Source: an uncultured Gammaproteobacteria bacterium (lineage in GTDB: Bacteria > Pseudomonadota > Gammaproteobacteria > Steroidobacterales > UBA11654). Taken from it: a stretch of 64,000 nt of DNA. Under the pieces are notes generated by a model. It did no database searches. It worked only from the letters and a program-made list of their open reading frames with translations, and was not told the DNA's origin. The stretch spans positions 78,294-142,293 of the forward strand of contig CACJRN010000002.1 in assembly GCA_902595845.1 (NCBI GenBank). The letters are read 5' to 3'. Position 1 is the first letter of the stretch. Each line of letters opens with the position of its first letter. The position numbers and the translations under genes are program-made. Shown here piece by piece: positions 56,222-58,258 of this stretch.

Positions 56222-58258
56222 TATCTAATAGTTATTTGAAAATTTGTTTCAAGCATTTTGATGACTTTTGACATGAAGCCGTCAATTTCAGTATCCTTAA
56301 GGGTGCGTGATTTTGCTTGAAAAATCAACCCTATAGAGATACTTTTTTGAGTGTTCTCACCATTCTCTTTATCAAAGAGATCGAACACAACGATGTCTTT
56401 AAGTTCTTTGATATCTAGACCTTGTATCTCTTCGGTCACATTGCTTATTCTATTTTTATTAGGAAGAACAAAAGATAGGTCTCTTCTTGATGAGGGGTAG
56501 TATTCAGAACTAGTAAAACTAGTTAAAGCTGGTAATTCTAGACAGTCATAATCAAGTTCAAAAAGAAAAGGATCTTGTTCAATCTTCATATCACGTGATA
56601 GCTCTGGATTAAGCATGCCGATTATTCCAATTTTTTTATTCTTTAACTTTATTTCAGCAGCAACACCAGGGCAAAGCATTGGGTGTGAGACAGGTTCAAA
56701 TTTAACGTTTTTTAGGTTGAATACTGAGAAGAGATCTTCTAAGTGACCCTTTAGATCATAGAAGTCAACAGCAACCTTAGAGTATGCCCAGCTTTCCAAT
56801 CGTCGATTTCCATATATAAGTCCAGCGATTACGTTTGTTTCTATTGGACGTCTTTTCCTACTCGAAAAATGCTTTCCGACTTCAAATATTTTAATGTCTT
56901 TGTGTTGCCGTTTGATGTTATGAGATAGATTATTGAGCAACCCAGGCCAAAGCGAATTTCTCATGACAGACATTTCGATTGAGATCGGATTTTGCAAGTC
57001 AATCATGTCTGCTTTAGAGTCGGATAATGAATTCATTGAGGGGCTAACAAAGCTATAGTTGACAACCTCGTTGTATCCCAACTGGTGAAAAATAGAATCT
57101 ATTCTTTCACGCTTTAATTGGCGAGATGATTTATTCATTAGCATCATGTTTTGTTGCTCGACATTTTCTGGAATCTGATCAAATCCATAAACCCTTGAGA
57201 TTTCTTCAATCAAATCACACTCTTCGTTGATATCGAATCGATAACTTGGTGCTTTTACGCTCCAGCCAATATAACCAAAATCCTTCTCTTTAATCTCCAT
57301 ATCAAGCCTATTAAGTATGCTCTTAATAGTTTGATTAGGGATTGTTATGCCTAATATTTGCTTGATCTTATCTTTTCTAAGAGTAATGAATTTATTTTTA
57401 GGCAGTTCTTTTTTACTGATTGATGAATGAATGGGACCATTCGATCCTCCAGCAATTTCATTGATTAGGCTTGTAAATCTCTGTATCGCATACTCCTGTA
57501 TCATTGGATCAACTCCCCTTTCAAACCTCATGCTTGCTTCACTGTGCAAGCTAAGCGACCTCGCTCTTCCCATGATTGTTTCATAATTAAAATAGGCTGA
57601 CTCTAATACAATATTTTCTGTGTCATCAGATATTCCTGAGTCAAGGCTTCCCATGATACCTGCAATACCTAATGCCTTTTTTGAGTCAGCAATGACAAGA
57701 AAATCTGAATCTAGAAGTTTCCTACTGCCATCAAGGATATCTATGGCCTCTTTGTCATTTGCTCTTCTTACAATAATTTTTTCATTAATCTTCTTTAAGT
57801 CATAAGTATGTAAAGGTTGTCCAGTTTCTAGCATCACAAAATTAGCAATATCAACGATTGCATTGATCGATTTATAACCTGATTGCTCAAGTCTTTTTTT
57901 GAGCCATTTTGGTGTATTTGCATCTTTATTTATTGACTTGATCACTCTAGTCATAAAAAACAGGACAATCTTCCTTGGACTGAACCTCAACATTCATAAA
58001 TTCCTTGTGATGTATTTCAGGATTAAGAAGATCTTCATATTTAATTTTCGCATTGTCCAAAGCACTGATTTCTTGGATGATCCCCTTATAACTGAAGCAA
58101 TCAGCTCGATTGGGGGTCAATGAGATGTCTAGAATTTCTTCCCCTTTATCTTTTTCTATCTCTGACTCAATTCCAGACAGTGTTAAGAGATCAGATAGAT
58201 CATCTGCACTGTAGTCTTTCTTGAATGACTCATTAATCCATGTAACAGGTAACTTCAT
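56221..58258 (-). CDS. pheT: phenylalanine--tRNA ligase beta subunit, interrupted by a +1 frameshift in a T6 run and lacking the B2 OB-fold domain
   Basis: The track ORFs 57947-58258 (103 aa, B1 plus the start of B3: ...LTPNRADC...EDCPVFYD*) and 56221-57993 (...[19 protein letters not shown]...) are consecutive PheT segments in frames offset by +1. They join at CCT GTT TTT TAT G, which is the plus-strand A6 at 57955-57960. Confidence 0.85.

Follow-up and report, generated by a model that had tools for sequence, protein, structure and literature searches.

The +1 ribosomal frameshift of prfB, the gene for release factor RF2, takes place on a re-pairable P-site codon (CUU-U), with a 0-frame UGA in the A site and a Shine-Dalgarno (SD)-like element 3 nt upstream; it is widely conserved and its product is a full-length functional protein. 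In the endosymbionts Buchnera and Blochmannia, essential genes frameshifted at A/T homopolymers are rescued at poly(A) tracts of about 9-10 bases or more, which occur in many genes. Transcriptional slippage in bacteria has been described for A or T runs about 9 bases long (Atkins et al. 2016, PMC5009743). Compensatory frameshifting of "problem" or "savior" indels is known from the G7 run of herpesvirus thymidine kinase, where a homopolymer indel is bypassed at low efficiency by slippage on the same run (PMC5009743). The locus analyzed here also resembles homopolymer-length assembly errors, with which it shares a single-base change in an A/T run, confinement to one assembly and the splitting of a conserved essential gene. 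The homopolymer indel artefact is the closest known category, and nothing in the locus is new in that respect.

The window, i.e. the whole stretch of 64,000 nucleotides that was analyzed, belongs to an uncultured marine gammaproteobacterium whose close relatives carry the source name "MAG: Gammaproteobacteria bacterium". It contains the gene order thrS-infC-rpmI-rplT-pheS-pheT, followed by a HU/IHF-type DNA-binding gene (ihfA-like) and a merR-family gene, and this order, with pheT directly after pheS, matches that of relatives L003-L013. The pheS gene (alpha subunit, 327 aa; 58261..59244, minus strand) is intact, with matches to tRNA-synt_2d (E = 5.5e-105) and Phe_tRNA-synt_N. The complete pheT locus occupies 56221..58258 on the minus strand and encodes 678 aa after one T is dropped, as judged from the repair, the relatives and the E. 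coli alignment. As deposited, the gene is split and does not form one uninterrupted reading frame. The frameshift point is a T6 homopolymer (57955..57960, minus strand; A6 on the plus strand), and the minus strand from 57970 to 57940 reads GAT TGT CCT GTT TTT TAT GAC TAG AGT GAT CAA G. The N-terminal fragment (57947..58258, minus strand), taken from the ORF list and its translation, has 103 aa, covers a B1-like region and ends in EDCPVFYD*; its out-of-frame tail excepted, it is identical to residues 1-101 of two intact 678-aa relatives (P0002 and P0008). The C-terminal part lies in the +1 frame, starts at the junction ATG (MTRVIKS...) and ends with the stop at 56221 (56221..57954, minus strand), with B3_4, B5, CLM and FDX-ACB domains; mechanically this ORF is open further upstream, to an ATG at 57993, giving 590 aa. 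An earlier sequence-only reading had reported pheT to be split at this T6/A6 run, and all the items it described were present where it had placed them.

The split gene is an ordinary bacterial pheT of the short form, encoding the beta subunit of phenylalanyl-tRNA synthetase (PheRS), an essential enzyme. The 590-aa ORF matched PF03483 B3_4 (1.3e-63), PF03484 B5 (2.5e-21), PF17759 tRNA_synthFbeta (4.5e-62) and PF03147 FDX-ACB (3.8e-22) in this order, which is the PheT order of B3_4, B5, catalytic-like and anticodon-binding domains. Removal of one T had been claimed to give a gap-free match to E. coli PheT, and the repaired 678-aa protein bore this out, aligning with E. coli PheT (3pco_B) at E = 3e-141 with no gap across the junction, opposite which the E. 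coli protein reads apeacprylgrvvkginvkaptplw. The gap-free alignment spans E. coli residues 155-794, query residue 40 being paired with residue 155.

PheT of this marine gammaproteobacterial lineage is 678-681 aa long and is devoid of the OB-fold tRNA-binding B2 domain (PF01588), an N-terminal domain typical of the ~795-aa PheT of E. coli and Thermus. No PF01588 match was found in the window PheT, and none was recorded among 120 listed relatives down to 49% identity. The missing B2 is a lineage-wide trait, unconnected with the frameshift.

The extra T is private to the source contig, and intact pheT is universal in the species. With the repaired PheT as query, relatives were returned at 98, 97, 90, 87, 86, 81 and 80% identity and on to about 50%; all the full-length ones are encoded in a single frame and have 678-681 aa. 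Among the shorter entries, those that were checked either meet the end of a contig (P0008 finishes in non-homologous sequence) or derive from another split assembly (P0128). At the DNA level 16/16 related loci, each with an intact frame of 678 aa, read TGTCCTGTTTTTATGAC (T5), and T6 was found in the window alone. These loci comprise the GTDB representative MAG UBA11654 (DMGO01000106.1), Tara and other ENA/JGI metagenome contigs, two JGI-collection contigs and one long-read contig. The sequence-only reading had proposed the comparison of T5 and T6 in related genomes as a check, with T5 as the sign of an artefact, and T5 was the result.

The nearest species-representative genome, MAG isolate UBA11654, has 92.9% nucleotide identity to the window over 3.7 kb of the operon; UBA11654 also names a clade of uncultured marine bacteria (bioRxiv 10.1101/2024.01.20.576437). 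Ten of the 16 loci, from independent metagenome assemblies of ten different samples, showed 99.15-99.61% nucleotide identity to the window over 17,780 aligned bases, and each of them had exactly one gap relative to it, namely the pheT base. In a collection of about 15 billion proteins, exact look-up of the two fragments (103 and 590 aa) led to one contig only, the 215,269-bp NCBI source. The same collection holds hundreds of records of the intact 678-aa protein, and 65 of its blocks index one and the same intact variant (P0130). The 90%-identity cluster of the 590-aa fragment has 261 members, and the 13 other members that were listed are all 678 aa long. When JGI metagenome contigs were scanned by pattern, the T6 allele had 0 matches and T5 had 2, a result of low power that is weak alone but agrees with the other comparisons.

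The quality of the assembly was assessed from an alignment of 25 related loci covering window positions 3,714-64,000. Two indels were private to the window in about 60 kb, each of 1 base; the remaining indels belonged to single relatives, mostly to a pilon-polished long-read contig (L017/L021). The second private indel (38812-38817, plus strand) is an A6 run, A5 in 4/4 covering relatives, and lies in an intergenic hairpin loop; the hairpin is GC-rich (GAGGCCCCGC-AAAAAA-GCGGGGTTTT), is followed by a T-run and resembles a terminator. Since both private indels are changes from A5 to A6 on the plus strand, a common technical cause is possible. The substitutions private to the window were 218 synonymous, 56 nonsynonymous and 5 intergenic. 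Thus 80% of the private SNVs were synonymous, a ratio essentially equal to the 481:134 observed among polymorphisms that the window shares with relatives, indicating that the window represents a real, distinct strain under normal purifying selection and that the base calls are reliable.

A generally error-prone assembly was rejected on the basis of the two private indels among the 25 loci (3,714-64,000), and random base errors in the window were rejected on the basis of the synonymous share of the private SNVs, which is like that of the shared ones. With regard to relaxed selection on pheT itself, SNVs scored as private against the ten closest relatives gave 6 nonsynonymous to 4 synonymous changes in pheT and 11:22 in the rest of the 17.8-kb region, counts too small to tell the two apart, and at least 3 of the 6 nonsynonymous pheT changes were also present in intact relatives (P0002, P0008 and P0029). 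The window contains 130 A/T runs of 6-8 bases and two A9 runs, and its ORF map shows no other obvious split gene.

Observations of a different kind were made at other loci of the window. The region upstream of ilvC (38642-38858, plus strand; ilvC start at 38859) is likely a leader-peptide attenuator for the ilvC-leuA-ilvE-leuCDB cluster. It has a promoter-like TTGACA at 38642, a 32-codon ORF rich in Leu and Ile (38677-38775, MKSMNNNEVLITSYGSEEILLNLLLICHPGAR*) and, after this ORF, an intrinsic terminator at 38802-38827; a search of the ilvC leader against Rfam gave leader-like matches below threshold only (Trp_leader, 23.9 bits vs a gathering score of 41). In infC (59828-60358, minus strand) the frame is open from the thrS stop region, and the conserved IF3 N-terminus (...IRASEIRLIDEDGSQLG...) is encoded upstream of the first ATG at 60232, before which the frame has no ATG, GTG or TTG; the true infC start must therefore be a non-canonical codon. 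The E. coli infC start codon is AUU. Gene callers cut infC to 134 aa in relatives as well. The TonB-dependent receptor gene (10321..12882, minus strand) has a 30-nt in-frame insertion in L023 at window position 12802, near its 5' end, giving 863 aa in L023 vs 853 aa in the window, which looks like ordinary strain variation.

The sixth T of the pheT run (an A on the plus strand, 57955-57960) would best be explained as a single-base length error in the deposited consensus of one assembly, introduced by sequencing, by consensus calling or polishing, or by DNA amplification. We put the probability of such a homopolymer-length artefact at roughly 0.8. Normal purifying selection should not leave a lineage with a broken copy of pheT, an essential single-copy gene, and since private indels are so few, the argument is drawn from the privacy of the allele and the essentiality of the gene and not from a high error rate. 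The most likely state of the organism is T5 with a normal PheT of 678 aa, as in all of its relatives, and no special decoding would be needed. A homopolymer sequencing or assembly error had also been ranked first by the sequence-only reading, and the occurrence of T5 in 16/16 relatives and of T6 in the source contig only supports that ranking. Against an artefact, the rest of the assembly is very clean and T6 is short for a systematic homopolymer error; in vivo, slippage of DNA polymerase makes the identical change; and the junction coincides with a domain boundary and an in-frame AUG, so that a real mutation might be less lethal than assumed.

Other assemblies of the species provide cases of split genes. 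A 140-aa N-terminal PheT fragment (P0128) is encoded on the 223,680-bp contig broomfield_1__contig_24027_pilon (L028), in which pheT has T5 at the site of the window's T6 and is frameshifted at an A7 run 55 nt downstream (window 57894-57900); thrS is split in this contig too. The split of pheT at A7 indicates that false homopolymer splits of this gene do occur in public assemblies of the species. This contig (L028 3001-5024) and myrmidon_3__contig_35909_pilon, from the same species, have many single-base indels, and pheT, thrS, hisG, ilvE, an aldehyde dehydrogenase gene and a peroxiredoxin gene are split in these two pilon-polished contigs. Indels of the pilon-polished contigs relative to the window often fall in short base runs, and such contigs are useful as negative controls for "pseudogene" calls in the lineage. 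The window differs from them in degree: L017/L021 has several split genes and showed 10-12 gap openings in 20 kb, compared with the window's two private indels in about 60 kb. Because the window is far cleaner than the long-read contigs, an error in pheT, if it is one, would be isolated and not pervasive.

Alternatively, T6 could be genuine, having arisen very recently and being confined to the cell or sub-population that was sampled, with PheT function either lost, in a dying or defective lineage, or partly kept by non-programmed means, and we regard this as unlikely. A recent inactivating mutation was the third option of the sequence-only reading. The reliable appearance of the base calls in the window, where SNVs are mostly synonymous and private indels number two in about 60 kb, fits a real mutation as well; on the other side, the allele was absent from every other assembly and metagenome contig examined, PheRS is an essential enzyme, and elsewhere the genome shows ordinary purifying selection. 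Should the source be a population consensus, one would moreover not expect its majority call to be a lethal or strongly deleterious allele.

Partial rescue of a genuine T6 may occur in two ways, both centred on the stretch that holds the candidate shift site and the junction AUG (GAAGAUUGUCCUGUUUUUUAUGACUAGAGUG, T6 site, minus strand). In the first, peptidyl-tRNA-Phe would occasionally slip +1 from UUU to the overlapping UUU, giving ...CPVF-MTR...; the U6 run permits perfect re-pairing of tRNA-Phe in the +1 frame, and the compensation of indels by frameshifting at a low level is well established (Atkins et al. 2016, PMC5009743), but the 0-frame A-site codon is UAU (Tyr), neither a stop nor a known hungry codon. 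In the second, the ribosome would terminate at UAG and start anew at the junction AUG, 5 nt upstream, and the B1 and B3-B8 fragments would reassemble. The native residue after the junction is Met, hence T6 places an AUG right at the start of B3_4 (Pfam B3_4 begins at residue 12 of the 590-aa ORF), and the 0-frame stop overlaps this AUG 5 nt downstream. The stop-start overlap AUGACUAG at the B1/B3_4 boundary could thus in principle yield a 103-aa B1 protein and a 577-aa B3-B8 protein by termination-reinitiation, a speculative arrangement seen in none of the relatives. AAGGAAG, the SD-like element, precedes the AUG by 15 nt and the shift codon by 11 nt, distances that suit neither role, and the RNA structure is unremarkable (z = -0.92). 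Known compensatory-indel systems share the homopolymer indel and the same-run bypass with this locus, but the pheT indel may not exist in vivo and has no apparent selective benefit, and a synthetase subunit is needed far above trace level. That T6 is real and PheRS remains functional, whether by slippage of tRNA-Phe on U6 or as a naturally split PheT, is in our view highly improbable.

A programmed +1 ribosomal frameshift of the prfB type as a normal part of pheT expression in the lineage has a negligible probability. Its attraction is that UUU-U is re-pairable and that the shifted product is the canonical protein: the 0-frame reads GUU UUU UAU, and tRNA-Phe can re-pair on the overlapping UUU, after which AUG ACU AGA follows. 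As in prfB, the shift would occur on a re-pairable P-site codon and would give a full-length protein. However, prfB has UGA in the A site and is widely conserved, whereas pheT has UAU and its shift is absent from all relatives; the 16/16 T5 loci, including conspecifics more than 99% identical, read pheT in one frame. UAU is a sense codon that is not known to be slow, and it is A/U-rich, the genome having about 36-40% GC; the site is not followed by a stop or a rare codon. The SD-like element of prfB is 3 nt upstream, whereas AAGGAAG ends 11 nt before the pheT shift codon and is not at prfB-type spacing. No stimulatory RNA structure was found around or downstream of the site, the fold being no better than that of shuffled controls (z = -0.92). 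A conserved recoding site was rejected, all relatives having T5; since recoding signals are conserved and none of the relatives has T6, this comparison refutes programmed frameshifting as a lineage feature. In the +1 slippage of tRNA-Phe suggested by the sequence-only reading, the re-pairing that gives the same protein is conceivable, but the slippage cannot be a programmed feature, being neither conserved nor accompanied by the usual stimulators.

Correction of a real T6 in the RNA by slippage of RNA polymerase on the homopolymer, a phenomenon that exists in bacteria and would suit an indel in an A/T run, can practically be dismissed, given that it is appreciable at runs of about 9 A or T (PMC5009743) and the pheT run has 6, that the 130 A/T runs of 6-8 and two A9 runs of the window have left no other obvious split gene, that the T6 allele is private, and that the longer rescue tracts of Buchnera and Blochmannia, spread over many genes, differ from what is seen here, one run of 6 bases in a marine lineage that is free-living and subject to normal purifying selection.

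The homopolymer-length error thus remains our preferred explanation. The deposited base turns an essential and universally intact pheT into an apparent pseudogene, which makes the locus a matter of quality control. The pheT gene of this contig should not be counted in annotation, pseudogene or recoding surveys, and the base at 57955-57960 should be treated as suspect. If T6 were nevertheless genuine, to which none of the observations points, the locus would be a small natural experiment on how well a frameshifted subunit of an aminoacyl-tRNA synthetase is tolerated, through slippage or through complementation of fragments that meet at a domain boundary.
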